DNA of 64,000 bases, taken from positions 10,178-74,177 of the forward strand of contig DATJFG010000133.1 of NCBI GenBank assembly GCA_035495775.1, written 5' to 3'. This document shows positions 15,671-40,336 of the stretch, in pieces; positions within the stretch are counted from its first letter, which is position 1; every line of letters begins with the position of its first letter. Made by a program: the position numbers and the translations under genes. Under the pieces are notes generated by a model. That model made no database searches. It saw nothing but the letters and a program-made list of their open reading frames with translations, and was not told where the DNA came from. Origin of the DNA: Verrucomicrobiia bacterium (GTDB lineage: Bacteria; Desulfobacterota; Binatia; UBA9968).

Positions 15671-15696
15671 TCGATCCTCCTCCTGATGACTTATTG

Positions 15697-21205: not shown

Positions 21206-21364
21206 ACGGCTGCGATAAGTCCGCAGTTCCGTTCTTCTAAGCCTGTTCCAGAAACTAGGACAGCGCCTTACATGCTTTCTCATTTTTGCGAAATTGGAAA
21301 CTGGCCTACGCCTATAAGCCCGTGTTTTTATACGCAATCTTGACAATTTTTGGATCCTCTTCGC

Positions 21365-21380
21365 TGGCATGAAAGGTGCT
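21365..21380 (+). promoter_or_regulatory. possible sigma54 promoter variant TGGCAT-gaaag-GTGCT upstream of split PFOR
   Basis: GG and GC dinucleotides at correct spacing, but -12 is GTGC not TTGC; overlaps the first ATG of the track ORF. Confidence 0.35.
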
Positions 21381-21401
21381 TTGAAAAGTCATGAGAAAAT
21401 T

Positions 21402-25822: not shown

Positions 25823-25835
25823 AAAGGAGAGCTCT

Positions 25836-26171
25836 ATGACCGTCGAAACGACTGCGGCAACGCCGCTCAGCTTAAGAGAGCATCTTTGGATGGCGCTCGT
25901 CGTCGGGTTTTTGCTGCTCGTCTCGATCGCCTGGACACGGCTGGCGGTGAATGCGTCCGAAGGGCCGCAAAAGAGCGACGGTTATGTCCGGCGCGAGAAA
26001 AAGCCGGTGCTCTCGCCCGCGCTTTTCGTCGGCCAGACGGCGAAGGCCTACCGCATCGCGCAGGAGATTCCCGATGTTCTCGACCAGCTCTACTGTTATT
26101 GCGAATGCGACAGGCACCTCGGGCATAAGAGCCTGCTCTCGTGTTTCACCGATGATCACGGCGCCGGCTGA
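25836..26171 (+). CDS. PCYCGC-motif membrane-anchored protein. The ORF ends at an in-frame TGA and may continue to 26279 as a selenoprotein.
   Basis: TM helix then YCYCECDRHLGHKSLLSCFTDDHGAG; TGA at 26169. The downstream in-frame peptide VNICQGEALDASQMLKQGYSIKQIRAEIDKKYARR runs to TAA at 26277. Confidence 0.55.
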   Translation: MTVETTAATPLSLREHLWMALVVGFLLLVSIAWTRLAVNASEGPQKSDGYVRREKKPVLSPALFVGQTAKAYRIAQEIPDVLDQLYCYCECDRHLGHKSLLSCFTDDHGAG

Positions 26172-26286
26172 GTGAACATCTGCCAAGGAGAGGCGCTGGA
26201 TGCGTCTCAAATGTTGAAGCAGGGCTACAGCATCAAGCAGATTCGCGCCGAGATCGATAAGAAATACGCCCGGCGCTAAAATAAAC

Positions 26287-28284
26287 GTGAAGAATTTTCT
26301 TTTCATTCTTCTTTTTCTTCTTGTCCCCGGGCACGCTTTCGCCCACGGTGAGCACGGCAATGCCGCGCCGCCCACGGGAACGTCGCCGGTAACCGTCGAC
26401 GGCTATCAAATTGAACTGTTGACGGTTCCTTCGCCGCTCGTCGCCGGCAAAGCGAGCCAAATCGTCGCGAAGGTGCTGCGCAGCGGCACGATGGAGCCCG
26501 TGAGCGGCGGCACGGTTTCCATCGGCATCGCCCCGATGGAAGCGGCGGCGGCGATGGATGCGCATAGTGAGCACGCCGGTCATGCCGCAATGAATCACGG
26601 TTCGTCTTTGACGCCGGTGCCCGAGGTCACATGGGCGGGCAGCTATACGCTCGAGCAGACGCCGGTGCAGCCGGGCTCCCATATGGTCCGCGTTGCGCTG
26701 GCGGAGCTCAACGGCAGAGCTTTCGCATCGCCGATCGTTATCGATTTTCATATCGACGTCGGCTCCGCCAACGCAATTTCGCCCGCGCTTCTCATAGCCG
26801 CGCTATCGGCATTGGTCGTCGCTTTCGTCGGCGTCGGGCGCGCCGCGGCGCGCGCGCGCGCGCCGATCGAGGCCGAGGGTTCGCTCGATTTGCTGCGCCT
26901 TCAATGGCTCGATCGCTTCGTCCGCTGGAGAGGATTCCAGCCGGTTTTTCAACTCCCCGTTTTAGCGCTGACGATTCTGCTCGCGTATCTGGGCTTCGCC
27001 GACATCCAGGACGGCGCGAAAAATCTCGCGACGAGACTCACCTGGATCGTCTGGTGGCCGAGCATCATCTTTACTTTTATTCTCGTCGGCCGCTTCTGGT
27101 GCGTGATGTGTCCGTTCGGCGCACTCAACGAATGGGCGGCGAAATTGGGCAAGCCCGGGCGCATGTTTCCCAAACCGCTGCGCAATCTTTGGGTTGCGAC
27201 TTTTCTCTTTGTCCTTCTCACTTGGTTCGACGAGCAGCTCGGCATCATCCGCTCGCCGTATATGACGGCTTCTCTCATCGTCCTGCTCTCGTCGGCCGCG
27301 ATCGTCACCGGACTTTTTTATCAGCGCCGGACTTTTTGCCGATATCTATGCCCGATCACCGGCTTGCAGGGCCTTTACTCGATGATCTCCCCCGTCGAGC
27401 TGCGCTCAAAAAATCGCAGCGCGTGCCAGACCGAGTGCCATCAGGAATGCTATCGCGGCAACGACCGCGGCGACGGCTGCCCGATGTTCGAGTTCCCGAT
27501 GATGATGGAGCAGAATACGTTCTGTAACTTCTGCTTCGAATGCGTGAAAAGCTGTCCGCCGGGAAATCTAGCGCTTAAAACGCGCGCGTTTGGACGCGAG
27601 CTGTGGAGCGCGGGCGTCCGCAAGCTCGACGAAGCGTATCTCGCCGTCGCGCTGGTCGGCATCACCAGCATCGTCAGCGCGCAGATGCTCGGGCCGTGGA
27701 ACGACTGGATATCGCGCCTGGCGCGTTATCTGCCGATCGACATCCGTGTTTTGATGCGGCCCGTGACATATCTCGCGATGACCGAATCGGCCGTGTTCTT
27801 CCTGCTATCGCTCGCCTTTGCCCCCTTGCTGGTACTTTTCGCCGCCTGGTTGGCGGTCAAGTCGTCAGGTGAAACGGCGCGAAGCGTCAAGGAGACGTTT
27901 GTCATGTTGGCGGGCATGTTTATTCCCGTCGGCCTCGCGATGCATCTCGCGCACAACGCGTCCCATCTTCTGGCCGAGGGAGCCGGGGTTATTCCGGCCT
28001 TGCAGCGCGTCTTGAACCGCTACACTCCGTTCGATTTCGGCACGCCCAATTGGCAGAGCAGCCCGCTGGCGTCCGCCGAAGCGATCCACTGGCTGCAGAT
28101 GCTGCTCATCGTTGCCGGGCTCGGTCTCTCGTTGGCCGCCTACGAGCATCTTTCGATCGCATGGCAGGGAAAGCGGCCGCAAGGGGCGCGGGCGCTCATT
28201 CCGTTCGCGGCAGTGGCCCTCATCTTCACGATCATCAATTTGCTCCTCCTCAATCAGCCGATGGCCATGCGCCACGGCATGTAA
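26287..28284 (+). CDS. membrane polyferredoxin of NapH/CcoG(FixG)/NosR type with N-terminal periplasmic His/Met-rich domain
   Basis: Signal peptide; HGEHGN and MDAHSEHAGHAAMNHG; CxxCP motifs FWCVMCPFG and CRYLCPITG; two ferredoxin motifs CQTECHQEC...CP and CNFCFECVKSCPPG; extra C-terminal TM helices; GTG start. Confidence 0.7.
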   Translation: MKNFLFILLFLLVPGHAFAHGEHGNAAPPTGTSPVTVDGYQIELLTVPSPLVAGKASQIVAKVLRSGTMEPVSGGTVSIGIAPMEAAAAMDAHSEHAGHAAMNHGSSLTPVPEVTWAGSYTLEQTPVQPGSHMVRVALAELNGRAFASPIVIDFHIDVGSANAISPALLIAALSALVVAFVGVGRAAARARAPIEAEGSLDLLRLQWLDRFVRWRGFQPVFQLPVLALTILLAYLGFADIQDGAKNLATRLTWIVWWPSIIFTFILVGRFWCVMCPFGALNEWAAKLGKPGRMFPKPLRNLWVATFLFVLLTWFDEQLGIIRSPYMTASLIVLLSSAAIVTGLFYQRRTFCRYLCPITGLQGLYSMISPVELRSKNRSACQTECHQECYRGNDRGDGCPMFEFPMMMEQNTFCNFCFECVKSCPPGNLALKTRAFGRELWSAGVRKLDEAYLAVALVGITSIVSAQMLGPWNDWISRLARYLPIDIRVLMRPVTYLAMTESAVFFLLSLAFAPLLVLFAAWLAVKSSGETARSVKETFVMLAGMFIPVGLAMHLAHNASHLLAEGAGVIPALQRVLNRYTPFDFGTPNWQSSPLASAEAIHWLQMLLIVAGLGLSLAAYEHLSIAWQGKRPQGARALIPFAAVALIFTIINLLLLNQPMAMRHGM

Positions 28285-28313: not shown

Positions 28314-30680
28314 ATGTCCCGAGCAAATTTAAGCAGGCGCGACTTTCTCCGCCAGACCGCCGCTCTCGCCGCGGCATCGGGCGTATCGCCGAGTGTTTTT
28401 TTCGCCAAGGAGGCCGACGCCGAAGAAGCGGTCGTCGATGCCTGGCAAAAAGCGCCGTGCCGCTTCTGCGGCACGGGCTGCGGCGTTCTAGCCGGAATAC
28501 GCAAAGGCAAGATCGTCGCCGTGCGAGGCGATCCCGAGGCGCCGGTCAACCGCGGGCTTCTCTGTATCAAAGGTTACAGTCTGCCGAAGATCCTCTACGG
28601 CTCCGACCGCTATACGACGCCGCTGCTGCGCCAAGGCGATGAGTTTGTCCCGATCACCTGGGAAAGCGCGCTCGATCTCATGGCCGCCAAGTTCAAGCAG
28701 GCGATCGAAAAATCCGGACCGGAATCGGTCGGCGCTTACTTCTCGGGGCAATCGACGATTTTCGAGGGCTACGCGATCAATAAGCTGATGAAGGGCGGCA
28801 TCGGTTCGAACAACATCGAGGGCAATCCGCGGCTCTGCATGGCTTCGGCCGTCACCGGATTCTACTCGACGTTCAATATGGACGAGCCGATGGGCTGCTA
28901 CGACGATTTCGAGCTCACCGACACCTTTTTTCTCTGGGGCTCGAACATGGCGGAAATGCATCCTATGCTTTACTCGCGCATTGTCGAGCGCAAGCGGCAA
29001 GACCCCGCCGTCAAGATCGTGAGCCTCCAGACCTTTACGAACCGCAGTGCGGAAGCTCCGGCCGATATCGTTATGGTCTTCAAGCCGCAGTCCGATCTCG
29101 CCATCGCCAACGCCATGGCCCACGTGGTCGTCAAAGAGGGGCTCATCGACGAGAACTTCATCCGCAAGCACGTGAATTTTAAACGCGGTCTCACCAACAT
29201 CGGCTACGGCGTCGAAGACCGCTTCGAATACGGCGGCGCGGAGCCGAGCTGGAAAACCTTTCGACCCTTCGCCGACAAAGGCGAGCCGGTAAGCTACGAC
29301 GATTACAAAAAATTTCTCCAGACCTACACGCCGGAATACGCCGAAAAGATCTCGGGCGTGCCGGCGCAGATAATCCGAGAGGCGGCGCTGCTATTCGGCG
29401 ATCCCAAGCGCAAGGCGGTTTCCCTTTGGACGATGGGGTTCAACCAGCACACCCGCGGCACTTGGATCAATAATTTGCTCTACAACCTGCACCTGCTGAC
29501 GGGAAAAATCGCCGCGCCGGGAAACAACCCGCTATCGCTCACGGGGCAGCCGTCCGCCTGCGGCACGACGCGCGAGACCGGCGCGCTCGCGCATCTTCTT
29601 CCCGGCGGTCATTTCGTCGCCAACGAAGAGCACCGAAAGGAGGCGGCGGAAATCTGGGGTGTCGCGCCGGAGAAGATCTCTCCCAAGCCGGGTTATCATA
29701 CGATGGAGCTGTTCCGCGCCTTGGACCGCGGCGACGTTAAAGTGCTGTGGATCAACACGACGAATCCATTTCAGACGCTGCCGCGCGCCGGCCGCTACCG
29801 ACAGGGCGCGCGTAAAGGCGGGGAGCGCTTTTTGATCGTGTCGGAGGTCTACCCGAGCGAGACGTCGCGTTACGCCGATCTCATCCTGCCGTCTGCGATG
29901 TGGATCGAGAAGGAAGGCATGTTCGGGAATACCGAGCGCCGCACGCAGCATTGGGCGAAGATGGTCGAGCCGCCCGGCCAGGCGAAAGGCGATCTATGGC
30001 AAATCGTCGAGCTGGCGAAGCGCTTGGGTCTGGGGAAACTTTTCGACTACGGCGCGGAGCCGCTGGAGAAATCCTTATTCGAAGAATATCGCAAGTTCGG
30101 CTCGGGAAGAGGAAAGGATCTCGCTCCGTACGATGTCTACGCAAAGGTTCGCGGCGGACTTAGGTGGCCGGTGGTCGACGGCAAAGAAACTCGCTGGCGC
30201 TATCGCGAAGGTCACGATCCCTACGTCAAGGCCGGCGAGGAGGTGCGCTTTTACGGCCAGCCGGACGGCCGCGCGGTTATTTGGCTGCGGCCCTACGAGG
30301 CGCCGGCGGAAGCGCCGGACGGCGATTATCCCTTCTGGCTCAGTACCGGCCGCGTCCTTGAGCATTGGCACACCGGAACGATTACGCGGCGCGTTCCCGA
30401 ACTCCACGCGGCTTTTCCCTTCGCCCCGGTTTGGATCAATCCCGATGACGCCAAGGCCATGGACGTCAAGACCGGCGACCGCATGCGCATCCAATCCCGC
30501 CGCGGCGAGATTGTCGCGCGCGCCGAGCTGGGCGGCAGGAACACGGTGCCGAAAGGCTTCGTTTACGTGCCGTTTTTCGATGAGAGCGTGCTGATCAATT
30601 TGGTGACGCTGGACGCTTTCGATCCCATTTCCAAACAGCCGGACTTCAAGAAATGCGCCGTCCGATTAGAGAAAATATAG
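28314..30680 (+). CDS. napA: periplasmic nitrate reductase catalytic subunit NapA (molybdopterin oxidoreductase)
   Basis: Tat signal SRRDFLRQTAALAAA; N-terminal [4Fe-4S] motif CRFCGTGCGV typical of NapA; ~788 aa. The track ORF starts upstream, but the ATG at 28314 with GGAGG RBS fits. Confidence 0.85.
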   Translation: MSRANLSRRDFLRQTAALAAASGVSPSVFFAKEADAEEAVVDAWQKAPCRFCGTGCGVLAGIRKGKIVAVRGDPEAPVNRGLLCIKGYSLPKILYGSDRYTTPLLRQGDEFVPITWESALDLMAAKFKQAIEKSGPESVGAYFSGQSTIFEGYAINKLMKGGIGSNNIEGNPRLCMASAVTGFYSTFNMDEPMGCYDDFELTDTFFLWGSNMAEMHPMLYSRIVERKRQDPAVKIVSLQTFTNRSAEAPADIVMVFKPQSDLAIANAMAHVVVKEGLIDENFIRKHVNFKRGLTNIGYGVEDRFEYGGAEPSWKTFRPFADKGEPVSYDDYKKFLQTYTPEYAEKISGVPAQIIREAALLFGDPKRKAVSLWTMGFNQHTRGTWINNLLYNLHLLTGKIAAPGNNPLSLTGQPSACGTTRETGALAHLLPGGHFVANEEHRKEAAEIWGVAPEKISPKPGYHTMELFRALDRGDVKVLWINTTNPFQTLPRAGRYRQGARKGGERFLIVSEVYPSETSRYADLILPSAMWIEKEGMFGNTERRTQHWAKMVEPPGQAKGDLWQIVELAKRLGLGKLFDYGAEPLEKSLFEEYRKFGSGRGKDLAPYDVYAKVRGGLRWPVVDGKETRWRYREGHDPYVKAGEEVRFYGQPDGRAVIWLRPYEAPAEAPDGDYPFWLSTGRVLEHWHTGTITRRVPELHAAFPFAPVWINPDDAKAMDVKTGDRMRIQSRRGEIVARAELGGRNTVPKGFVYVPFFDESVLINLVTLDAFDPISKQPDFKKCAVRLEKI

Positions 30681-30688
30681 GTGGGCTC

Positions 30689-30985
30689 ATGACGAAAATC
30701 ATTTTCCCGATTCTTTTCGTGGCATTTCTCGCCTTATCGACCGCGCAGGACTCTCCCGCAGAAGAGAGTCAGCGGTTGCCGCGCTCTTATCCTGGAGCGC
30801 CGCCTCTGATTCCGCACGATGTGGAGGCGCGAAAGGGACTTTGTCTCACCTGTCATGAAACCGGAGTGGCTGAGGCGCCGATCGTTCCGCATCCGACGCG
30901 TGATCCGGTATGCCTGGAGTGCCATGTCGGCCAAGACCGTACGGCGAAAGAGTTCCGTAGCTCCACTCAGCCGGCTAAGCAGTAA
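30689..30985 (+). CDS. napB: diheme cytochrome c NapB, small subunit of periplasmic nitrate reductase
   Basis: Signal peptide, two CxxCH (CLTCH, CLECH), LIPHD region; ~98 aa; immediately downstream of napA. Confidence 0.75.
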   Translation: MTKIIFPILFVAFLALSTAQDSPAEESQRLPRSYPGAPPLIPHDVEARKGLCLTCHETGVAEAPIVPHPTRDPVCLECHVGQDRTAKEFRSSTQPAKQ

Positions 30986-31066
30986 AGAGGAGCACGTCGT
31001 CTGACTACCGCGACGGGCTATTCAACACGGAGAGCAGCGTTGGCTTACGCAGGGTGCTTCAGTTAA

Positions 31067-31543
31067 TCAAGCCGCTGCAACAGCCGGCTTCAGCTGCGGC
31101 TGTGGTCGGATAGACAGAACGGGGCAGGATGATTTCCGCACGACGTTTTCCGTGACGCTTCCCGTGAGCATGTGCGATAGCCCTGTCCTGCCATGCGTTG
31201 AGATGACAATGAGATCGACATTCTCCTGGGCGACCTTCTCTACGATATTTTCGTCTGGATTGCCTACTTCAACGATAGCTTCCAACCCTTCCACCGGCAG
31301 CAAATCGCTACAGTGCGCTTCGATGAAGCTCGCGAGCAGCTGACGATGCTTCTTCAACAGCTTTTCAAGCAGAATCGGCTTGACGTGCAAGAGCTGGAAG
31401 CGGACAAATTCGTCAAGGCAAAGCACGTGATAGACGATGACCTTGCAGCCGGACTCTTTGGCCATCTCAAGCGCCGTACGCAAGCCGACAAGCGAAAGCT
31501 CCGATAAATCCGTCGGCGCCAGAATCTTTCCAATTTTTTTCAT
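31067..31543 (-). CDS. universal stress protein (UspA family)
   Basis: 158 aa; USP fold blocks (ILAPTDLSE..., VIVISTHGRTGL..MLTGSVTENVVRKSSCPVL). Confidence 0.85.
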   Translation of the reverse strand: MKKIGKILAPTDLSELSLVGLRTALEMAKESGCKVIVYHVLCLDEFVRFQLLHVKPILLEKLLKKHRQLLASFIEAHCSDLLPVEGLEAIVEVGNPDENIVEKVAQENVDLIVISTHGRTGLSHMLTGSVTENVVRKSSCPVLSIRPQPQLKPAVAAA

Positions 31544-31588
31544 CGTCCGATCCTCTCGGTTAGTGGGAGTTTTCTATTTTTTGCTTCA

Positions 31589-31603
31589 GCACAAAGCATG
31601 CCA
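31589..31603 (-). promoter_or_regulatory. possible sigma54 promoter variant TGGCAT-gcttt-GTGCT upstream of usp
   Basis: Plus strand GCACAAAGCATGCCA; GG/GC spacing correct, -12 is GTGC. Confidence 0.3.
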
Positions 31604-31769
31604 CCCATAACGAGTAAATCTCCAGGAAAAAGCCTGTCTCTACATGGCTTTTTCCACTTTTTAAGAGAATGGCGCTTAAAATTCGCATTGAAGCGAAAAA
31701 TTCCCTCGCCCTCTTCAGTAAGTTGTGCTATTTTTCCACGGCATAAAGCTTGCTGTGTGGTTTCGGCGC

Positions 31770-32510
31770 ATGAGGAATCGGCTCATAATTACGTCCGCTT
31801 TTTCCTTCCTCATCACCTCCTTTATTTTTTCAGCGGCTCTGTCTTTCGCCTACGATGAGATCGCAGTTGCCAACGGCGGTGCGATCAAAGGCACGGTCCG
31901 GTTTACCGGCGGTCTGCCGAAGCTCGCCCCCCCCGTCGTGACGAAGTTCAAAGAGGTCTGCCAGGGCGTTCCGAATGAAAGCCTGGTCAGCGGTCCGGGA
32001 CAGGGAATCCGCTATGCCGTCGTCACGCTTGAAGGCGTCGCCAAAGGACGTCCCATCGAGCGCGAAGTCGTCCATGAAATCGACAACGTAAAATGTCGCT
32101 TCGCGCCCCATGTGATCGTCGCGGAGGTGGGGCAGTTTATCGTCTTCAAGAACAGCGATCCGATACTCCATACGGCGCACGCTTTATTCCAGGGCGATCA
32201 GCCGCAATTCAACGTCGGCCTCTATCCTGGACGCGTCAGCCGCAAGCCGCTGACGATGCCGGGAATCGTAAAGATCATTTGCGAAGTCCATTCATGGATG
32301 AGCGCCTACGTCGGGGTCACCGATCACCCGTATCACGCCGTCACGGACGCCTACGGTGAATATTTAATCCAAGATGTGCCGCCGGGCGTCTACCGGCTGA
32401 AACTATGGCATGAGACTTTGGGCGTCCAGGAGAAAGATATCGAAGTGAAAGCGGCTACGACTGCGCAGGTCGACTTCAGCATGTCGCAAAAATCGGGAGA
32501 AAAGAAATGA
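31770..32510 (+). CDS. secreted cupredoxin-like (type-1 copper, C-x2-H-x2-M) domain fused to carboxypeptidase-regulatory-like beta-sandwich domain
   Basis: Signal peptide; ligand candidates H (PILHTAHALF) and CEVHSWM (amicyanin-like C-x2-H-x2-M); C-terminal YGEYLIQDVPPGVYRLKLWH CarbopepD_reg-like. Confidence 0.5.
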   Translation: MRNRLIITSAFSFLITSFIFSAALSFAYDEIAVANGGAIKGTVRFTGGLPKLAPPVVTKFKEVCQGVPNESLVSGPGQGIRYAVVTLEGVAKGRPIEREVVHEIDNVKCRFAPHVIVAEVGQFIVFKNSDPILHTAHALFQGDQPQFNVGLYPGRVSRKPLTMPGIVKIICEVHSWMSAYVGVTDHPYHAVTDAYGEYLIQDVPPGVYRLKLWHETLGVQEKDIEVKAATTAQVDFSMSQKSGEKK

Positions 32511-33124
32511 TCCGGCCGTGGCTGATCATATCGGTTTTGCTCGCTCTGGATTTTTCATCTGCGCTGGCGGCAGAGCCGGCAAACGGCGTCATTAAGGGAT
32601 CCATCACCATCGGCGGCCGGCCGACCGCCGATGCCGTCGTTTCCTTGGAGGGGTTCTCGCCGAAGGCTGTAAAGCCGCAATCAGCCGCCAGCAAAACGAA
32701 AGCCGTCATCGATCAAAAAGATCTCAAATTTAATCCGCGCGTGCTGGCCGTGATGGTGGGCAAGACCGTGGATTTTCCGAATCACGACAAGACTTTCCAC
32801 AACGTCTTTTCGACCTCAGAGGCGAAAAAATTCGATCTCGGTCTCTATCCGTCGGGCCAAAGCCGCAGCGTCAATTTCGACAAGCCGGGCGTCGTCAAAA
32901 TCTTGTGTAATGTCCATCCAAACATGGAGGCCTACGTTGTCGTCAAGGCGCACCCGTACTTCAGCGTTCCCGACGACCGCGGCAATTATTCCATCAAGGG
33001 TGCGCCGATGGGTAAATATCGCGTCGAGGTGTGGCATCCACAATTCGGCGTCAAAAGCGTTCCCGTGGAGCTGGTGCGAGACGGCGAAGTCCTCGCGATC
33101 AATTTGGATTTAAAGGACAAATAG
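32507..33124 (+). CDS. paralog of preceding gene: cupredoxin-like + carboxypeptidase-regulatory-like domain protein
   Basis: FHNVFS ... CNVHPNM (C-x2-H-x2-M) ... GNYSIKGAPMGKYRVEVWH; ATGA overlap. Confidence 0.5.
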   Translation: MIRPWLIISVLLALDFSSALAAEPANGVIKGSITIGGRPTADAVVSLEGFSPKAVKPQSAASKTKAVIDQKDLKFNPRVLAVMVGKTVDFPNHDKTFHNVFSTSEAKKFDLGLYPSGQSRSVNFDKPGVVKILCNVHPNMEAYVVVKAHPYFSVPDDRGNYSIKGAPMGKYRVEVWHPQFGVKSVPVELVRDGEVLAINLDLKDK

Positions 33125-33250
33125 CTCATTCGAGTCTTGTTTTTGAAAATTACCGGTATTATACCTGAGCGCGAATTTTCAGTCGTCGGTTTGCGGTAAT
33201 TCCGAGGCCGCGGCGATGCGGCCGGTTAGAGAAAGCGAACGGGGGGTTAC

Positions 33251-34213
33251 ATGATCCAACGACCTCTGAAGGATTTCGTTTTCCGCTGTCTTGTAAAATT
33301 TTCCGCAGCGGCTGTTTTCTTCATTCTAACCGCAGCCGCCTGGTCTGCGGACGCACCTCCACCCGAGCCTACCTACGTCGGCAGCGACGTCTGCAAGGCC
33401 TGTCACGCGCCTCAATTCGAGCAGTTCTCGCAGACGCAGATGGGCAAAATATTTTTATTCAACGCCCGCACGCTGCGCGAGAAACAAGCCTGCGAATCTT
33501 GCCACGGACCCGGCAGCAATCACGTCGCCGCCGGCGGCGGCCGGGGCGTCGGCGGGCTGATCTCGTTTCGTAAAGACGCCGAGCCGGGAAAAGTGCAAAA
33601 CGGCGCCTGTCTCCAATGCCATGAGAAGGGCATGCATACGTATTGGGAGGCGAGCCCGCATGCGAGCCGCGGGCTCACCTGCACGAACTGCCACACCGTC
33701 ATGCACAAGACGACCGACCGCTACCAGCTCGCGAAGGTCGACGACAAGACCCCGTTTTTCTGGAAGCGCGCCGATATCGAGGTCTGCGGGCAATGCCATC
33801 TGCAGAGAAAAGCGCAGCTCATGCGCTCCTCACACATGCCGATGCGCGAAGGAAAGATCGGCTGCAGCGACTGCCACAATCCCCATGGAACGCCGAATCC
33901 GTCCCAGCTGAAACAGGCAAGTGTCAATGAGAACTGTTACACGTGCCACACCGAGCGGCGCGGGCCCTTCCTATGGGAGCATCCGCCGGTCATCGAGAAC
34001 TGCACGAATTGCCATGAGCCGCATGGTTCGGTCAACGACCGGCTGCTAAAGGTCACAGACCCGCGTCTCTGCACGCAGTGCCACCAGACGGCATTTCACC
34101 CCTCGACGCCGCGCGGGAAGAATTCGGCCTTTTTCTTCAACCGCAGCTGTACGAATTGTCATAGTCAGGTCCACGGCTCGAATCATCCAGCTGGGATATT
34201 CTTCCAGAGATAA
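33251..34213 (+). CDS. periplasmic decaheme c-type cytochrome, MtrA/MtoA/PioA family
   Basis: Signal peptide and 10 CxxCH motifs in 320 aa (CKACH, CESCH, CLQCH, CTNCH, CGQCH, CSDCH, CYTCH, CTNCH, CTQCH, CTNCH). Confidence 0.85.
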   Translation: MIQRPLKDFVFRCLVKFSAAAVFFILTAAAWSADAPPPEPTYVGSDVCKACHAPQFEQFSQTQMGKIFLFNARTLREKQACESCHGPGSNHVAAGGGRGVGGLISFRKDAEPGKVQNGACLQCHEKGMHTYWEASPHASRGLTCTNCHTVMHKTTDRYQLAKVDDKTPFFWKRADIEVCGQCHLQRKAQLMRSSHMPMREGKIGCSDCHNPHGTPNPSQLKQASVNENCYTCHTERRGPFLWEHPPVIENCTNCHEPHGSVNDRLLKVTDPRLCTQCHQTAFHPSTPRGKNSAFFFNRSCTNCHSQVHGSNHPAGIFFQR

Positions 34214-34225
34214 GGAGGTCGGAAC

Positions 34226-36535
34226 ATGAAAACCATCAAGCGGTCCCGCGCGATTATTACCGGCTTGGCGACGTCGGTGGTTCTGGCCTTCAGCGGTCTC
34301 GCCGCGGCGGAGGTCGAATTCGCCGATCTGGTCGCCAGCGGCAGCGCAGAGATCGGTGGCGTCCCCGGCACGAGAACCGGCGGCAATGAGGGGAAATCGA
34401 AGTTCGAGGAATATCGTGAGACCGGCCTCGGCGGCTGGATCGTTCCCGAGCTGCAGTTGTTCCTCGGCGGCAAGAAAAACGACTTCTTCGTCAGCTTCGA
34501 TTCCACCAAGCCGGGTTTCAGGGATCAAAATTATCGCCTCCGCTTCGGCCTCTACGGCCTCCTCGACATCGAGGCGGAATGGGATCAGATCCCGCATCTC
34601 TTCGACGAGGGGATCTCCCGCACGCCCTTCCGCCGCGACGGCGGCACGTTCCATCTGGACGGCAAACCGACCACCAACATTTCAACTTCGGCTCACTGTG
34701 ATGCGCAGCCGGCGACGAATTTTTGCCATTTTCTCGATAAGGGAAATACGCACCCCGTCGATTTGGGGCTGCTCTACGGCATCGGCCGTTTTAAAATCAA
34801 ATACACGCCCCTTCCGGGCTGGACATTAAACGCCGGTTACTGGTCGCAGCACGTCGGCGGCGACCGCGCGTTCGGAACGATATTCGGCACGCCCGGGAAC
34901 TTTTCCGTGGTCGAGCTCCCCGAGCCGATCGACTATCAGATGCACAACGTCGAGCTCGGCGGGGAATACGCGGCAGACTGGTGGTCGGTGGGGCTTAGGT
35001 ATCAGGGCTCGTTCTTCCACAACAACATCAGCACGCTGATTTGGGACAATCCGCTGAACCTCACCGGCGTCGGCGGCGGCTGCTCCGACTCGGCGACCTT
35101 CAGCAATGCCACCAACGGAGTGGACGCCAACCGCGGCCCGTGCCGTGGGCGGCTCGACCTCTATCCCAGCAACCAGGCGCATACGTTCACGCTCACGGGC
35201 GCGGCGACTTTACCCTGGAAGACGCGTTTCATGGGAACCGCCTCCTACGGCTGGCGGCTCCAGGACGACAAGTTTCTTCCCTTCACGATCAATAGCGCGA
35301 TCACCCAGCCGGCCATGTCCGCGCACAGCCTCGACGGGGACGTCCGGCCGACGATGATCAACGCCACGGTCGTCAACAACGCGATCGATCATCTGAACCT
35401 TAAGGCCTACTATCGCTATTTCGATCTGGACAATCAGAGCCGCAGGGTCTCTTTCCCCGACGGCATCGTCATCAACGATCAGGCGGGCACCGCGGTAAGC
35501 CCCAATTGCCCGCCCGCCGGCGCGAGCTGCGGGGACGCCGAGAGAACCAACCGCTACGCCTATTCCAAGCAGAACATCGGCTTCGACGCCGGATATGACT
35601 TGACCCGCTGGCTGACGGTTAAACTCGGAACAGGCTGGGAGAAGATGCATCGGGAATTCCGCGAGGTCAGAAACAGCGATGAATACGGCGTCGGCCCGAC
35701 GGTCGACGTCAAGCCGTTATCGTCGCTTCTGCTCCGCGCGAGCTACCGCCATTCGTGGCGCAACCCCTCTCATTATAATCTCGACGAGGAGAACATCGCC
35801 AAGAAGTTCGACGAGGCGCGACGGAACCGCGACCGCGCGAGTCTCTTCGCGCAATATACACCGTGGGAGATTTTAAACCTCTACGCCGGATTCGAGTTTA
35901 CCAAGGACGATTATCCCGACAGCCGCCTGGGCACTCAATTCGATTTCAATTATTCGCCCTCGGCGGGCTTTGCGCTAATGCCGTACAAATGGCTCAAGTT
36001 TTTCGGCGATTACAATTGGGACCGCTACGACTGGCAGCTCGATGCGATACAACGAAGCGCGGCTTTGGAGACTCCCGACGCCGTGAATTGTCCGAAGAGC
36101 GGACCGACCCGCTGCTGGACGAGCCGCGGCCTGGACCGAGTCCACACGTTGTCGTTCGGCAGCGACGTGACTCTGATTGAAAACGTCCTCGGCTTCCGCA
36201 TCCAGTACGGCTATTCGTTCGGCACCAGCCGAGTGAACGCCTCGGGCGCCACCTGCGGCGGCTGCACCCGGGCGACGAACTATCCGACGATTAACAATAG
36301 CTGGCAAGAGCTGCTCGCCCGTTTTGAATATCAGGTCATGAAGAACGTCGGTTTAAGGGTGGGCTACTACTTCAACCGTGCCCGCGACAACGACCACGGC
36401 GTCGATATCATGAAACCGTGGATGGGCGATGTCGACCCCAGCGCGAGTGTGCAGCATTCTGTGTTTCTCGGCGACCGCATCAAAGGTCCGTTCACGGCGC
36501 ACGTCGGCTTCGTCGCTTTGAAATTCAGTTTCTAG
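34226..36535 (+). CDS. outer-membrane beta-barrel porin of MtrB/MtoB/PioB family
   Basis: Signal peptide, 769 aa, alternating amphipathic beta-strand pattern, C-terminal ...ALKFSF aromatic terminus; AAGGAGG RBS; gene order matches mtrAB/mtoAB/pioAB. Confidence 0.7.
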   Translation: MKTIKRSRAIITGLATSVVLAFSGLAAAEVEFADLVASGSAEIGGVPGTRTGGNEGKSKFEEYRETGLGGWIVPELQLFLGGKKNDFFVSFDSTKPGFRDQNYRLRFGLYGLLDIEAEWDQIPHLFDEGISRTPFRRDGGTFHLDGKPTTNISTSAHCDAQPATNFCHFLDKGNTHPVDLGLLYGIGRFKIKYTPLPGWTLNAGYWSQHVGGDRAFGTIFGTPGNFSVVELPEPIDYQMHNVELGGEYAADWWSVGLRYQGSFFHNNISTLIWDNPLNLTGVGGGCSDSATFSNATNGVDANRGPCRGRLDLYPSNQAHTFTLTGAATLPWKTRFMGTASYGWRLQDDKFLPFTINSAITQPAMSAHSLDGDVRPTMINATVVNNAIDHLNLKAYYRYFDLDNQSRRVSFPDGIVINDQAGTAVSPNCPPAGASCGDAERTNRYAYSKQNIGFDAGYDLTRWLTVKLGTGWEKMHREFREVRNSDEYGVGPTVDVKPLSSLLLRASYRHSWRNPSHYNLDEENIAKKFDEARRNRDRASLFAQYTPWEILNLYAGFEFTKDDYPDSRLGTQFDFNYSPSAGFALMPYKWLKFFGDYNWDRYDWQLDAIQRSAALETPDAVNCPKSGPTRCWTSRGLDRVHTLSFGSDVTLIENVLGFRIQYGYSFGTSRVNASGATCGGCTRATNYPTINNSWQELLARFEYQVMKNVGLRVGYYFNRARDNDHGVDIMKPWMGDVDPSASVQHSVFLGDRIKGPFTAHVGFVALKFSF

Positions 36536-36556
36536 TCAAGAGAGGAAGATAAAATC

Positions 36557-36940
36557 ATGCAATGGATCATCTTGATTGGTGCGTTAGTGATTTTCTCATT
36601 TTCCTCTCCGGCCAGCACATGGGCGCAGTCAAAAGGGGATGCCAACGCTGGAAAAGCAAAATACGAATCTCTATGCGCGGGCTGTCACGGGAAAACAGGT
36701 AAGGGCGACGGCCCGGCGGCGGCGAGCTTGAACCCCAAGCCGCAGGATCATACCGATGGCAAAGTCATGAATGCTCTCAGCGATCAATACCTGACGGACA
36801 TTGTCAAGAACGGCGGCGCATCGGTTAAAAAATCGCCGCTGATGCCCGCGTGGGGCAAGACGTTGAAGGACCAAGAAGTAGCGGATGTAATCGCCTATAT
36901 AAGAAGCTTGGCCAATCCTCCCTACAAGTCGGGGAAATAA
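36557..36940 (+). CDS. monoheme class I cytochrome c (MtoD-like candidate)
   Basis: Signal peptide, single CAGCHG, distal Met region; 127 aa. Confidence 0.8.
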   Translation: MQWIILIGALVIFSFSSPASTWAQSKGDANAGKAKYESLCAGCHGKTGKGDGPAAASLNPKPQDHTDGKVMNALSDQYLTDIVKNGGASVKKSPLMPAWGKTLKDQEVADVIAYIRSLANPPYKSGK

Positions 36941-37065
36941 GGACGCTCTATTCCCTGTCGGCCTGGAACGTTTTCATTCGGCGGCGAATCGACATCGGCG
37001 GCAGCCGCTTGTAATCATCGATCGGCATATTAAAATTACATAGCAGATTCACAGGAGGAATCATC

Positions 37066-37389
37066 ATGAAAATCTTCGTAGCCATGCTTGGTTTTTTCCT
37101 CGCTGCAGCGCTGTCCGGCGTTGGCTGGGCCGCCGATGCCGGCAAGGCTGTGTATGACAAACAGTGCGCCTCGTGCCATGGACCCGACGGCAAGGGGAAT
37201 CCATCGATGGCGAAGGTTTTTGGCGAGAAGCAACTCAACATCGCCACAAAGGAAGTCGCGGATAAGAAAGACGACGAGCTCGTCAAGGTGATTACCGAAG
37301 GTAAAGGCAAAATGCCGGCCGCGGGCAAGTCGCTGAACGCCGCAGATCAAAAAGCCGTCGTAAGCCACGTAAAGTCTCTCGGGAAGTAG
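37066..37389 (+). CDS. monoheme class I cytochrome c
   Basis: Signal peptide, CASCHG; 107 aa; paralog of 46495-46845 product. Confidence 0.8.
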   Translation: MKIFVAMLGFFLAAALSGVGWAADAGKAVYDKQCASCHGPDGKGNPSMAKVFGEKQLNIATKEVADKKDDELVKVITEGKGKMPAAGKSLNAADQKAVVSHVKSLGK

Positions 37390-37417
37390 GCGGCAGCAGG
37401 GGAACAACACGGCCTTG

Positions 37418-38599
37418 ATGATAAAAATCATCGCTGCCGCTGCTGTTCTCCTCTGCTTGGCCAGCGCGGCGTTCGCTCAATCGCTCTTCACTTCGGAGCA
37501 GGATCCGACCGCCGGCGCTCGCGTCTTCGGTGCTAAGGGATGCTCGAATTGCCATAGCATCGAAGGGCTCGGCGGCAAAATCGGCCCCGATCTCGCGCGC
37601 ACCCAGCAAGGCCGCTCGTTTTACGATCTCGCCGCCGCCATGTGGAACCATCTTCCAGGCATGGCGGACAAGATGCGGGAGTTGAAGATCCAGCGGCCGC
37701 TTCTCAGCGCCGAAGATGCGGCCAACCTGATCGCGTTCCTTTTTACGCTCCAGTATTTTGACCGTCCTGGAAATGTCGATGCAGGCAAACGTCTCTTCGC
37801 GGAAAAAAAATGCGTTGTTTGCCATCAACTGAACGGCACCGGCGGCGTCGTCGGCCCGAATCTCGACGGGCTTAAAGATTATGGCTCGCCGCTCTTCATC
37901 GCCGCTGCTATGTGGAATCACGGACCATCGATGGCCGCGGTTATGCGTGAAAAGAGGATTGCACGGCCGTCGTTCAGGGGTTCGGAACTGACCGATCTCA
38001 TCACATATATAAAATCGGCGGCGACGGCGAAAAGCGAGTCGCCGGTGACTGTTTTGACCGGCTCTCCCGAACGCGGCCGGCGACTTTTCGCCGATAAGCA
38101 CTGTCTCGAGTGCCATAGTGTCGCGAGTCAGGGAGGAAAAATCGGGCCGGATCTGGCGGATAAAGCGCTCCACCGAAGCATTCTCGATTTCGCAGCGGCG
38201 ATGTGGAACAAAGCGCCGGCGATGCTCGCGGCGATGAAGACCCGCAAAGTCGCTGCTCCGAGACTAGAACCCGAAGAGATGGCCGACATCGTCGCCTATC
38301 TTTACTCCGTCCAGTACTTTGCGCGCCCGGGCAACGCGAAAAGGGGGCGCGAGATTGCCTCCCAAAAAGGATGCTTTAGCTGCCATGGCGTAGCTGGCGT
38401 CGGGGATAAGTCCGCGCCGAGTTTTTCGCAGATCAAGGACATCGACTCGCCGGCGACCGTGATCGCGGCGATGTGGAATCATTCGTTTCTCACGGATCGA
38501 CCGTTGCAGGGTCAAAAAACGCTTTGGCCGCAGTTTCGTGCCGACGAGATGGCGGATTTGGCGGCCTATTTGCAAACGAGTGGCCGGGGGCCGACATGA
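37418..38599 (+). CDS. tetraheme cytochrome c built from four tandem class-I cytochrome c domains
   Basis: Four ~95-aa repeats, each with CxxCH (CSNCH, CVVCH, CLECH, CFSCH), a GPDL/GPNL turn and an AAAMWNH motif. Confidence 0.8.
   Translation: MIKIIAAAAVLLCLASAAFAQSLFTSEQDPTAGARVFGAKGCSNCHSIEGLGGKIGPDLARTQQGRSFYDLAAAMWNHLPGMADKMRELKIQRPLLSAEDAANLIAFLFTLQYFDRPGNVDAGKRLFAEKKCVVCHQLNGTGGVVGPNLDGLKDYGSPLFIAAAMWNHGPSMAAVMREKRIARPSFRGSELTDLITYIKSAATAKSESPVTVLTGSPERGRRLFADKHCLECHSVASQGGKIGPDLADKALHRSILDFAAAMWNKAPAMLAAMKTRKVAAPRLEPEEMADIVAYLYSVQYFARPGNAKRGREIASQKGCFSCHGVAGVGDKSAPSFSQIKDIDSPATVIAAMWNHSFLTDRPLQGQKTLWPQFRADEMADLAAYLQTSGRGPT
37480..38590 (+). repeat. 4x intragenic tandem repeat (~285 nt units) encoding cytochrome c domains
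   Basis: Repeated protein blocks G(A/E)(R/K)..F..K.C..CH......G.(I/V)GP(D/N)L....FAAAMWN. Paralogous at protein level, nucleotide divergence substantial. Confidence 0.6.
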
Positions 38600-39849
38600 G
38601 CGCTTTGCGCGCATACGGAGTGTTTTTGTGTTTCGTTTTCCTGGGGCTCGCTGCCTTGTCGTCGGCGGCCGAACCGGAGAGTTGCGTCGCCTGCCATCAA
38701 GCGATCGGCGTACCCAAGCTCACCCAGCCGGTCAAAGATTTTCCCCAGGACATCCACGCAGTCAAGGGGTTTGGCTGTGTCGCCTGTCACGGCGGCGACG
38801 CCAAAGACCCCGGCATGACGGCCATGGACAAGACCAAAGGCTTCATCGGCGCGCCGACGCGAAAAGATCTTCCACAGGTGTGCGGACATTGTCATTCCGA
38901 TGCGCGTTTCATGCGGCAATACAATCCATCCCTGCGCGTCGATCAGGTTGCGGAGTATTACACCTCGGTCCACGGCCAGCGGCTCGCGCGCAACGGCGAC
39001 GAAAAGGTCGCGGTTTGCACGAGCTGTCACCCGGCGCACTCGATCCGTCCGCCGTCGGACCCGCGCTCCTCGGTCCATCCGCTGAAGGTCGCCGACACGT
39101 GCGGCCGGTGTCACGCCGATGCGAAGTACATGGAGAGCTACAAGATCCCGACCGACCAGCTGCCCAAATATAAAAAGAGCGTGCACTGGCGGATGATGTC
39201 GGCCGGCGGCGATCTCTCCGCGCCCACGTGCAACGATTGCCACGGCAATCACGGCGCCGCGCCGCCGGGAGTCTCTTGGGTCGGGAATGTCTGCGGCCAG
39301 TGCCACGCGCAAAACGAAGAGCTGTTCAGCAAAAGCGTTCACTCCAAAGCATTCGTCAAAATGGGCATTCCCGGCTGCGCCACCTGTCATTCAAACCACG
39401 AGATCGTCCCGCCGAGCGACGCGATGCTCGCGGTCGGCGAGGGCGGCGCCTGCGCGGGTTGTCACACCGCCGAAGACAACGGCGGCAAGACCGCTCTGGA
39501 GATGCATCGGCAGATCGATGCGCTGAGAAACGCCTACGACAAGGCGCATGCCGCTCTGGCGAAGGCTGAGTCTGCCGGCATGGAAGTCAGCCAGCCGCAG
39601 TTTGAACTGAACGGCGCCAAGACCGCGCTCGTCAAGTCGCGCGCGGCAGTGCATGCGTTCAACATCGACGCAGTCAAAAAAGAAGCCGCGCCCGGCATCG
39701 ATATCAGCGGAAAAGTCTATGCCAGGGGCGTCAAAGCGCTCGATGAATTGCAATTCCGCCGCAAGGGGCTCGCGGTCTCCGCGCTGATCATCGCCGGGTT
39801 GATCGTCGGCCTGGTCTTGAAAATACGAGAGATGGAGAAGCCGAAGTGA
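38596..39849 (+). CDS. nonaheme c-type cytochrome with C-terminal membrane anchor
   Basis: Signal peptide; 9 CxxCH; C-terminal TM helix GLAVSALIIAGLIVGLVL; ATGA overlap with upstream gene. Confidence 0.8.
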   Translation: MSALRAYGVFLCFVFLGLAALSSAAEPESCVACHQAIGVPKLTQPVKDFPQDIHAVKGFGCVACHGGDAKDPGMTAMDKTKGFIGAPTRKDLPQVCGHCHSDARFMRQYNPSLRVDQVAEYYTSVHGQRLARNGDEKVAVCTSCHPAHSIRPPSDPRSSVHPLKVADTCGRCHADAKYMESYKIPTDQLPKYKKSVHWRMMSAGGDLSAPTCNDCHGNHGAAPPGVSWVGNVCGQCHAQNEELFSKSVHSKAFVKMGIPGCATCHSNHEIVPPSDAMLAVGEGGACAGCHTAEDNGGKTALEMHRQIDALRNAYDKAHAALAKAESAGMEVSQPQFELNGAKTALVKSRAAVHAFNIDAVKKEAAPGIDISGKVYARGVKALDELQFRRKGLAVSALIIAGLIVGLVLKIREMEKPK

Positions 39850-40331: not shown

Positions 40332-40336
40332 CGCTT

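Follow-up and report, generated by a model that had tools for sequence, protein, structure and literature searches.

A cupredoxin-containing porin–cytochrome cluster of the MtrAB/MtoAB family in a Binatia contig: predicted components and candidate directions of electron flow

The outer-membrane conduit and its closest described systems

The closest described systems to the gene cluster considered here are the Mto clusters of Sideroxydans ES-1, culture KS, Gallionella ES-2 and Dechloromonas aromatica RCB, the PioABC system, MtrCAB of Shewanella, and the ImcH, CbcL and extHIJKL-extMNOPQS systems of Geobacter sulfurreducens. FeGenie takes MtrC as a marker of reducers, iron oxidisers being without it, and its category for an MtoAB that lacks MtrC is 'possible oxidation / possible reduction' (PMC7005843). 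According to a revised model of the Mto pathway, electrons take two branches, a low-potential route through PmcA and a high-potential route through MtoD (PMC13390432). We analysed a stretch of 64,000 nt (the window) of contig DATJFG010000133.1, assigned to Binatia, which encodes a decahaem cytochrome c followed by an outer-membrane barrel. A preliminary description of positions 28,314–37,389 had presented this pair as a candidate for electron uptake from Fe(II), coupled to nitrate reduction through napAB genes nearby. Our results describe a conduit that is ordinary in kind and a nitrate link that is weak.

The first gene of the pair (33251–34213, on the plus strand, as are all genes below unless marked otherwise) encodes a periplasmic cytochrome c of 320 aa from the MtrA/MtoA/PioA/DmsE family, with exactly 10 CXXCH motifs between residues 48 and 300. 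Its score on the DmsE-family decahaem model TIGR03508 is 254.2 bits against a cutoff of 192.2 (cutoffs here and below are the curated Pfam, NCBIfam or TIGRFAM model thresholds), while the narrower GSU2203 model gives 238.7, under its cutoff of 325. Aligned with the solved MtrA of Shewanella baltica (6r2q_A, E=1.8e-58), it is 45% identical over 260 aligned residues, and all ten haem motifs are aligned. The second gene (34226–36535) starts after a gap of 12 nt and encodes a 769-aa outer-membrane beta-barrel of the MtrB/PioB family. On PF11854 (MtrB_PioB) this protein reaches 295.4 bits against a cutoff of 23 and covers profile positions 8–634 of 635, and on TIGR03509 it is barely over the cutoff (246.5 against 240.05); the MtrB/PioB signature expected from the preliminary description was thus borne out by both models. 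An AlphaFold model (AF2) built from 45 homologues has a pLDDT of 75 and ~26 long strands. In a Foldseek search with this model the top match was MtrB (6r2q_B, E=3.4e-36, TM 0.85), the remaining matches were TonB-dependent receptors with TM <0.45, and the C-terminal residue of the barrel is Phe.

The family scores of the decahaem cytochrome and the barrel, like those of the Nap proteins below, are far beyond chance, and every feature tested places the pair in the MtrAB/MtoAB/PioAB porin–cytochrome family. From sequence and model, the decahaem cytochrome is predicted to be threaded through the ~26-strand MtrB-type barrel, giving a two-component electron conduit across the outer membrane. This core identification is not new, as automatic annotation pipelines already name both proteins correctly.

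Cysteines of the barrel show a separate pattern. Cys286 is kept in 44 and Cys306 in all of the 45 homologues, which suggests a loop disulfide between them, and a CXXC motif at residues 677–680 is found in 25 of the 45. Wee et al. reportedly described in 2014 an N-terminal CXXC in the MtrB of metal-reducing gammaproteobacteria; the present barrel is without that motif, since residues 1–150 contain no cysteine.

The 45% identity to MtrA and the TM of 0.85 on MtrB liken the pair to Shewanella MtrCAB (6R2Q), but the barrel is ~70 aa longer, and neither MtrC/OmcA nor carriers of the CymA, STC or FccA type accompany it. For comparison we used 16 fetched related loci (L-numbers below) and one further contig, P0125, available as a gene table without DNA (17 in total). 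No MtrC/OmcA-type surface cytochrome was found in the 64-kb window, up to 10 kb from the barrel in the fetched loci (all 16), or in the P0125 gene table; matches to PF22113 were weak and fell to cytochromes of the periplasm or the inner membrane. Lacking MtrC, the system is not an MtrCAB. With PioABC it shares a two-component decahaem and barrel without surface cytochrome and a dedicated carrier that is not multihaem, which is the high-potential iron–sulfur protein (HiPIP) PioC there and cupredoxins or monohaems here. PioA has a haem-free N-terminal extension of ~200–270 aa (PMC3274759, PMC10654088). The present decahaem cytochrome is without such an extension, because its first haem motif, at residue 48, comes directly after the hydrophobic signal peptide. 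No family match to HiPIP was obtained among the annotated genes at 25–48 kb, a scan that covered open reading frames (ORFs) of 80 aa and more. The lack of both extension and HiPIP separates the cluster from PioABC, and the host is not a phototroph. Additional Cyc2-type genes, which the preliminary description had thought worth looking for, were not found either: the window contains no fused cytochrome–porin, and the sole other ORF with a CXXCH (14799–15743, minus strand) is the shadow of an NMT1-family gene.

Soluble carriers and inner-membrane modules

The conduit genes stand in a co-directional cluster of 15 genes at 31.8–46.8 kb, in which gaps are short or overlapping. The segment from 30.6 to 46.8 kb carries 11 genes for c-type cytochromes, which together have 56 CXXCH motifs; without napB the figures are 10 genes and 54 motifs. 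The genes reported earlier for 28,314–37,389 are present, but the end of the unit had been set too early, and the cluster runs ~9.5 kb further, to ~46.8 kb. Its soluble carriers are two cupredoxins, three monohaem cytochromes c and one four-domain cytochrome c. Its four inner-membrane modules are a Rieske/cytochrome b complex with a 9-haem anchor, a NapC/NrfH-like pentahaem protein, a CbcL/MtoC-type protein and an ImcH-type protein. Together with the conduit, carriers and modules therefore make up a complete path between the quinone pool and the cell surface.

Two genes upstream of the decahaem gene encode proteins with a cupredoxin domain and a C-terminal CarboxypepD_reg-like domain. CupA (31770–32510, ORF opening at 31725; 246 aa) was recognized from its ligand pattern and AF2 model, has a C-terminal CarboxypepD_reg-like beta-sandwich, and in the model matches amicyanin, pseudoazurin and plastocyanin; an identical 246-aa protein is annotated 'plastocyanin' by JGI, and ~790 proteins match it at E<=1e-5. 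CupB (32507–33124, 205 aa) scores 32.3 bits on PF00127 against a cutoff of 21.2 and aligns with the cupredoxin domain of NirK (9cck) with its ligands kept. The type-1 pattern His...Cys-x2-His-x2-Met is conserved in all orthologues of CupA and CupB examined (8/8 for CupB), and both proteins are predicted to bind copper as type-1 (blue) cupredoxins. Their signals are ordinary Sec signals without lipobox.

As the preliminary description had it, two small soluble class-I monohaem cytochromes c (both PF13442 and PF00034) follow the decahaem and barrel genes. The first, c1 (36557–36940, 127 aa), has one CXXCH and an LMPAWG motif, and the second, c2 (37066–37389, 107 aa), a CXXCH and a GKMPAAG motif. 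A third, c3 (46495–46845, ORF opening at 46357; PF13442 and PF00034), is a paralogue resembling c2 in sequence, with a 116-aa orthologue in L013. The description of c1 and c2 as MtoD-like did not survive as a family claim. In the Protein Data Bank (PDB) the best matches of c1 are the Kuenenia cytochrome 6h5l_B, CcoP, ActE and c552; MtoD is absent from all 58 matches of c1 (E<=1) and from the best 60 of the 84 matches of c2. Moreover, at the usual position of the sixth ligand c1 and c2 carry a Met-Pro motif of the kind typically seen in His/Met cytochromes; the haem of MtoD has bis-His ligation (PMC11511738). These monohaems may nevertheless play the part of PmcA or of MtoD. We also gave up an argument from His/Met ligation of c1 and c2 to a high carrier potential, since PmcA has His/Met ligation and yet a potential of −143 mV (PMC13390432). 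The remaining soluble carrier, tetraC (37415–38599, 394 aa), is a periplasmic protein with four class-I cytochrome c domains (4 CXXCH, four PF00034 matches); its matches to ExtS and SoxX are weak, with ExtS under the cutoff.

The first inner-membrane module begins with a 9-haem cytochrome c (38596–39849; the ORF opens at 38473, and the start codon forms an ATGA overlap with the upstream stop). It has 9 CXXCH and a C-terminal membrane anchor, a transmembrane (TM)-like segment at ORF residues 433–451 (TM-like segments were called by simple hydropathy), and is the probable cytochrome subunit of the complex encoded next to it. A Rieske [2Fe-2S] subunit of b6f/PetC type follows (39876–40331, ORF opening at 39846; PF00355 and PF25471 TM_PetC), with cluster-binding boxes CTHLSC and CACHNGHY. 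Then comes a cytochrome b of fused b6 and subunit IV type (40328–41434, 368 aa; PF00033 with 176 bits, and PF00032) that has 6 TM-like segments and, as best NCBIfam matches, cytochrome b6 and ExtP, both under cutoff. The usual second box of bc1/b6f Rieske proteins is CPCHGS-Y, and its Ser raises the potential in high-potential Rieske proteins. In the present protein Gly stands where this consensus has Ser, and such a replacement might indicate a lower-potential complex of menaquinol type.

Three further modules follow. A membrane-anchored multihaem cytochrome (41464–42570, 368 aa) with 5 CX2CH and 1 CX4CH has an N-terminal TM-like segment and weak matches to PF03264 and NrfH. The next protein (42601–44565, 654 aa) joins 11 CX2CH at residues 39–355 to an FdnI/HydC-like b-type membrane domain at residues 428–609 (PF01292 with 49.6 bits, FdnI TIGR01583 with 44.8 bits) with at least 4 TM-like segments. 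The CbcL/MtrH/MtoC family is defined by 3–23 N-terminal CX2CH and a C-terminal HydC/FdnI-like b-type domain of ~6 TM helices (PMC6295460), and this protein fits it at the level of architecture. The last module is an ImcH-type cytochrome (44604–46412, 602 aa) with TM-like segments at 16–34, 52–70 and 97–115, a CX3CH (CGELCH at residue 129, 14 residues past the third helix), 12 CX2CH and a PF03264 match at residues 96–185. Proteins of the ImcH family have three N-terminal TM helices, an adjacent CX3CH, then 5–9 CX2CH and a NapC/NirT-like region (PMC6295460). The likeness here is again one of architecture, with 12 CX2CH in 602 aa against the family's 5–9 motifs in ~500 aa. No mtrAB or mtoAB stood next to imcH in the survey of Zhong and Shi in 2018 (PMC6295460), and the ImcH-type gene beside an mtoAB-type conduit appears to be a new adjacency.

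Comparison with Mto clusters can now be made for the whole set. The gene order mtoA-mtoB-mtoD had been ascribed to Sideroxydans, but for ES-1 we infer the order mtoD-mtoA-mtoB-imoA-pmcA from locus tags and the placement of Slit_2494 downstream of cymA/imoA (PMC12016527, PMC13390432). With this order, a monohaem after the barrel occupies the place of PmcA rather than that of MtoD. Like the ES-1 cluster, the present one has an MtrA-length decahaem without N-terminal extension before an MtrB/PioB barrel longer than that of Shewanella, has no MtrC, and includes monohaem class-I cytochromes and a NapC/NirT-related inner-membrane cytochrome; two soluble monohaems also fit the two-branch PmcA/MtoD model (PMC13390432). 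Unlike in ES-1, no similarity of the monohaems to MtoD could be detected, and their ligation appears to be His/Met instead of bis-His. Moreover, no small tetrahaem NapC/NirT protein of ImoA/CymA type is encoded in the cluster, and in its stead are Rieske/cytochrome b, CbcL/MtoC-type and ImcH-type modules and two cupredoxins. The host here is a Binatia-like, probable heterotroph, whereas ES-1 is a gallionellacean lithoautotroph.

The mto clusters of culture KS, Gallionella ES-2 and D. aromatica RCB, two of whose three hosts are nitrate-dependent Fe(II) oxidisers, likewise combine the barrel with two small periplasmic cytochromes c and a protein with c-type and b561/FdnI-like parts, MtoC or Cytbc (PMC5566968, PMC6295460). 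The likeness is one of architecture. In the present cluster the Rieske/cytochrome b genes come first and the c/b fusion, with its 11 c-haem motifs, is found 6 kb downstream; cupredoxins and an ImcH-type protein are added. With G. sulfurreducens the locus shares both ImcH-type and CbcL-type architectures, clustering of a conduit with a Rieske/cytochrome b6-like complex, and matches to ExtP and ExtS; the latter scores are under cutoffs, however, and the conduit is of MtrAB type and not of Omb/Oma/Omc or Ext type. By analogy, the system probably works in a manner closest to the Mto clusters, with the inner-membrane partner swapped and cupredoxins added. Pio and Mto differ from each other in a similar way, since the former uses a HiPIP and the latter a cytochrome.

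Direction of electron flow and the link to nitrate reduction

Gene order in the related loci separates constant from variable parts of the system. Of the 16 fetched loci, 15 include both the decahaem and the barrel gene, and in all of these, as in the P0125 gene table, the two are adjacent. A class-I monohaem gene comes after the barrel gene wherever downstream sequence exists. Directly behind the barrel gene stands a c1 orthologue in 8 related loci and a c2-type gene in L005, L013, L016 and the P0125 contig. Orthologues of tetraC are found in 10 fetched loci (in 7 of them adjoining the 9-haem gene) and in P0125. The 9-haem gene is always immediately upstream of the Rieske gene, and the block of tetra-c, 9-haem and Rieske/cytochrome b genes is present in most loci reaching far enough downstream. 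The cupA-cupB pair precedes the decahaem gene in 10 loci with barrel identities of 48–76%; in L003 a multihaem gene is interposed between cupredoxin and decahaem positions, and in L014, L015 (Zixibacteria) and L017 the pair is absent while the conduit is kept. The NapC/NrfH-like pentahaem gene is kept in L013, the P0125 contig and L003, and the CbcL-type and ImcH-type genes are seen in the closest subclade only (the window, L013 and P0125). Gene content thus defines a conserved core of decahaem, barrel and monohaem c, usually with tetra-c, 9-haem and Rieske/cytochrome b, to which the cupredoxin pair is added in a Binatia-like clade.

Eight relatives (L002, L004, L006, L009, L010, L015, L016 and L017) have, between the monohaem and tetra-c genes, a set resembling Qrc, Psr or alternative complex III (ACIII), e.g. 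at 5497–10500 of L010. This set consists of a 5-haem cytochrome, a molybdopterin subunit of 804–807 aa, a 4Fe-4S protein and NrfD, and is absent from the window. In L017, an ActB-NrfD-ActD alternative complex III is located directly upstream of the decahaem gene. The database labels of the related loci are Binatia, 'delta proteobacterium', Syntrophobacteraceae, Acidiferrales and Zixibacteria.

The inward direction given in the preliminary description is not something that can be read from sequence, and the ImcH-type gene and an anaerobic catabolic gene cluster of benzoyl-CoA-reductase-like kind, 12 kb upstream, point outward. On balance we tentatively regard electron uptake as the likelier physiological direction when set against outward respiration, with a probability just short of an even chance. 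The donor, Fe(II) outside the cell or some other reduced substance in soluble or mineral form, would be oxidised at the outer end of the decahaem cytochrome, and the electrons would pass to the small cytochromes and cupredoxins, from which two ways would part. On a downhill branch they would reach a terminal reductase or oxidase; the reductase of this subclade would be NapAB, and the oxidase would have its genes in another part of the genome. On an uphill branch, the proton-motive force would drive them through the Rieske/cytochrome b or MtoC-type module into the quinone pool. NapAB would be an optional, recently inserted sink in this scheme and not a defining part of it.

Several pointers favour uptake. 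MtrC and OmcA are absent from the window and the related loci. Of the carriers, blue-copper proteins and class-I cytochromes have the tightest linkage to the conduit, a pattern shared with known Fe(II) oxidisers (rusticyanin/Cyc1, PioC, MtoD/PmcA). In addition, the order of barrel, two small cytochromes and c/b561 fusion parallels that of the culture KS mto cluster and of mtoABCD in ES-2 and RCB (PMC5566968). The Qrc/ACIII-like complexes beside the conduit of relatives recall the ACIII-like 'Mob' complex proposed for Mariprofundus (PMC10654088). A gene for a VIT1-family Fe(II)/Mn(II) transporter just upstream of the cluster in the closest clade is a further pointer.

Other observations weigh against uptake. 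MtoA, which is 42–44% identical to MtrA and 39% to PioA, complements a Shewanella mtrA mutant (PMC3274759), MtoA and PioA form no function-specific clades (PMC8805035), and the 45% identity of the present decahaem to MtrA is the same distance as that between MtoA and MtrA. A phylogenetic test against these families, as suggested in the preliminary description, is therefore a weak one. His/Met ligation is no guarantee of a high carrier potential (PMC13390432), and electron transfer from Fe(II) to Nap alone would conserve no energy. The cupredoxins may serve the b6-type complex in the manner of plastocyanin and not the conduit. ImcH, so far reported in Fe(III) reducers only, has been interpreted as a quinol oxidase (PMC6295460), and an ImcH-type gene is part of the cluster. 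By analogy with Geobacter, parallel modules at the quinone pool would be easier to understand as potential-dependent outward branches than as uphill routes. The window's benzoyl-CoA-reductase-like cluster and its 2-oxoacid:ferredoxin oxidoreductase point to a heterotroph that is facultatively anaerobic and in need of electron acceptors, and no gene for CO2 fixation or for a terminal oxidase is visible in the 64 kb.

Many of these points lead to outward respiration, which we consider a possible but less probable direction. A facultatively anaerobic heterotroph would oxidise (mena)quinol through the Rieske/cytochrome b, CbcL-type or ImcH-type module depending on the potential of the acceptor, as in Geobacter, and periplasmic carriers and the conduit would deliver electrons to acceptors outside the cell in soluble or colloidal form, namely Fe(III) chelates, Mn(III/IV) or humic quinones; NapAB would then be another anaerobic terminal branch on the same carrier pool. 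Such a role is in keeping with the ImcH-type architecture, the ImcH family being known only from Fe(III) reducers (PMC6295460), with the CbcL-type fusion, with ExtP and ExtS of the Geobacter ext cluster as second-best matches, under cutoff, of cytochrome b and tetra-c, and with the kinship of the decahaem to MtrA (45% identity). In Magnetospirillum AMB-1, the reduction of Fe(III) has been attributed to an MtrAB without MtrC (PMC7005843). The benzoyl-CoA-reductase-like cluster and the POR-like enzyme agree with it as well, and so do the Usp, sigma-54 regulator and PAS/GAF kinase neighbours, which are typical of anaerobically induced operons. However, neither the window nor the 16 fetched loci contain a surface multihaem cytochrome. 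Type-1 copper proteins normally lie well above the potential window of the MtoA haems (−400 to +100 mV, PMC13390432), and cupredoxins would therefore be poor donors to the decahaem. Moreover, ImcH-type and CbcL-type genes are limited to the closest subclade (76%), and elsewhere the partners are Rieske/cytochrome b and Qrc/ACIII-like complexes.

The probability left beside uptake and outward respiration goes to bidirectional use or to other roles. Among the latter, a DmsEF-like or copper-capped conduit, in which the cupredoxin/beta-sandwich proteins are secreted to the surface as non-haem extracellular partner and the substrate is not iron but e.g. Mn or organic radicals, seems very improbable to us. 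The cupredoxin pair is strictly syntenic in 10 loci, immediately upstream of the decahaem gene, as this role would have it, and CupA and CupB carry domains of the CarboxypepD_reg type, a beta-sandwich common among surface proteins. Predicted-extracellular proteins with cupredoxin domains are induced together with MtoA on magnetite in ES-1 (PMC12016527), and DmsEF demonstrates that MtrAB-type conduits can serve non-haem extracellular enzymes (PMC8805035). But ordinary Sec signals without lipobox and the lack of a secretion system encoded nearby do not agree with surface export, L014, L015 and L017 keep the conduit without cupredoxins, and these proteins can be explained conventionally, and sufficiently, as plastocyanin-like carriers of a b6-type complex. 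A Binatia-specific system of cupredoxin type is unlikely in our estimate: here an MtoAB-like conduit would be hard-wired through two dedicated blue-copper proteins and class-I cytochromes to the Rieske/cytochrome b complex, with NapAB in one subclade, and would allow abundant, uncultured soil bacteria, supposed to be aerobic methylotrophs, uptake from Fe(II) minerals or reduced humics coupled to reduction of nitrate or O2. In a system of this kind the cupredoxins might act at the cell surface in the place of MtrC.

The nap genes are located upstream of the cluster. NapA (28314–30680), the periplasmic nitrate reductase catalytic subunit, has a twin-arginine signal and an SRRDFLR motif, and scores 1073.1 on NF010055 (cutoff 904) and 1036.5 on TIGR01706 (cutoff 930.55). 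The NapB-like dihaem subunit (30689–30985, ORF opening at 30653; 2 CXXCH) is short, at 98 aa, and reaches 32.9 on PF03892 (cutoff 25.1) and 22.7 on NCBIfam NapB, whose cutoff is 230. Adjacency of napAB and the cupredoxins to the conduit, noted in the preliminary description, is confirmed, with 2.27 kb from the end of napB to the start of the decahaem gene. Between napB and cupA lies a gene for a universal stress protein (usp; 31067–31543, minus strand; PF00582, 101 bits) divergent from cupA, which has the same position in L002, L003, L004, L012, L013 and L016. The order in L013 is that of the window, POR-VIT1-PCYCGC-polyferredoxin-napA-napB-usp-cupA onward, with a barrel 76% and a NapA 90% identical. 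The P0125 contig, whose barrel is also 76% identical, has POR-VIT1-polyferredoxin-cupA-cupB-decahaem onward without napAB. L013 is the only one of 17 related loci with a napAB orthologue. Matches to NapA of 23–37% in other relatives were rejected, as these proteins are the molybdopterin subunit of the Qrc/Psr/ACIII-like set, for which QrcA and QrcB matches are under cutoff. Because napAB is absent from the equally close P0125 contig and from the other loci, we regard it as a subclade-specific insertion between the polyferredoxin gene and usp and not as a conserved part of the cluster, which weakens the earlier proposal of napAB as the coupled partner of the conduit.

An obligate unit of conduit and NapAB for nitrate-dependent Fe(II) oxidation, with electrons passing through monohaems and cupredoxins to NapB and on to NapA, would be a special case within the uptake reading, and we regard it as improbable. 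Its basis is that napAB lies 2.3 kb upstream on the same strand, that the order napA-napB-usp-cupA-cupB-decahaem-barrel recurs in L013 with proteins 71–94% identical, and that D. aromatica RCB and culture KS, both of which carry out nitrate-dependent Fe(II) oxidation, have mtoAB (PMC5566968). Since napC, napG and napH do not adjoin napAB, its electron donor must come from elsewhere; the candidates closest at hand are the cytochromes of the cluster, the NapC/NrfH-like one among them. Against these points stand the occurrence of napAB in 1 of 17 loci, the P0125 contig that keeps the other flanks without it, and the divergent usp gene that separates napAB from the cluster. Moreover, following established Nap bioenergetics, transfer from periplasmic carriers to NapAB would bypass every coupling site and hence conserve no energy, high-potential cupredoxins would be unlikely donors to NapB, and the published physiology of Binatota is aerobic (PMC8262859).

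Upstream of napA, the region 25013–28284 encodes a VIT1-family Fe/Mn transporter, a PCYCGC-motif protein (25836–26171) and a 665-aa polyferredoxin (26287–28284; PF12801, Fer4_5) with 10 TM segments and a His/Met-rich periplasmic N-domain, whose association is uncertain. These genes are kept upstream of cupA in the closest relatives even without napAB, and their products may have a part in the cluster's handling of Cu or Fe. An assignment of the polyferredoxin as NapH was rejected, its NapH matches being no higher than 21–22 bits. It is not a Nap accessory protein, because it is retained directly upstream of cupA in P0125, where napAB is lacking.

Host lineage and the rest of the window

Binatia (Binatota) are widespread in soils, and we take the host to be an uncultured, Binatia-like soil bacterium. 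The decahaem cytochrome matches more than 7,000 database proteins at E<=1e-10, a number that includes the broader DmsE/MtrA family. The best 120 of these are 67–95% identical, Binatia-like throughout and mostly from soil metagenomes, and the closest among them, at 95%, is labelled Candidatus Binatia by NCBI. The exact barrel protein is present also on a JGI soil-metagenome contig. A genomic survey of Binatota describes aerobic methylotrophs and alkane degraders and leaves extracellular electron transfer unmentioned (PMC8262859), and our search of the accessible literature found no paper linking Binatia or Binatota to MtoA, MtrB, PioA or extracellular electron transfer. A tblastn search of plasmids returned a Photobacterium homologue only.

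If the cluster is active, part of the redox cycling of iron, manganese or humic substances in soil is done by a lineage to which nobody assigns it, which matters for oxidation as for reduction. An Mto-type conduit without MtrC and with an MtoC-type module, set against an ImcH-type cytochrome, brings together in one operon-like unit what the literature uses as markers of opposite directions. For this reason, nature offers in this locus a useful case for testing how the direction of MtrAB-family conduits is determined. Since the nap linkage is sporadic, the locus alone does not explain the enzymology of nitrate-dependent Fe(II) oxidation. Three points are of specialist interest: the conservation of the cupredoxin linkage, the ImcH-type gene beside the conduit, and how abundant such clusters are in an unstudied soil phylum.

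The benzoyl-CoA-reductase-like class-I cluster lies at 4103–8228 (minus strand), within a catabolic region at 901–8228 (minus strand) that goes with elements at 8282–8296 and 8976–9974. It contains two BcrAD/BadFG ATPase genes and two HGD-D genes, with the NCBIfam benz_CoA_red A–D matches all under cutoff. Alongside are genes for an enoyl-CoA hydratase, a short-chain dehydrogenase (SDR), an amidohydrolase and a PaaA/C-like protein, and beta-oxidation-type genes are found in the window. This gene content suggests that aromatic compounds are broken down anaerobically, in a lineage whose description is an aerobic one. A second region, at 20102–25002, has a TIGR04053 radical SAM/SPASM protein (AhbD/NirJ-like, over cutoff) beside the two-subunit POR-like 2-oxoacid:ferredoxin oxidoreductase, and POR genes adjoin the cupredoxin-conduit cluster also in L005, L013 and the P0125 contig. 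The ORFs at 59934–61328 (minus strand, 464 aa), 8497–9018 (plus strand, 173 aa) and 18782–19276 (minus strand, 164 aa) had no Pfam match at E<=1e-4.

Between 28 and 47.5 kb, terminator-like sites were at chance level and promoter-like sites at about twice the expectation, with none informatively placed. A sigma-54 promoter for cupA was rejected, since the sole nearby motif (31740–31754, 2 mismatches) is 15 nt from the start codon and not credible. Downstream of the cluster, a sigma-54-dependent response regulator (47020–48393; PF00072, PF00158 and HTH_8) possibly controls it, and a regulator 40–41% identical stands beside the cluster in L002 and L016. Good −24/−12 motifs sit upstream of other operons. 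One of sigma-54 type is found just upstream of the benzoyl-CoA-reductase-like cluster (8282), adjoined by a sigma-54 activator, and further ones are at 10074, 14429 and 19766. A perfect consensus TGGCAC-N5-TTGC at 48524–48538 precedes two paralogous ABC_sub_bind genes (48642–50621), after which comes a Cache/HAMP/GAF histidine kinase (50694–53129). Judged from these motifs and regulators, the region looks heavily sigma-54-regulated.

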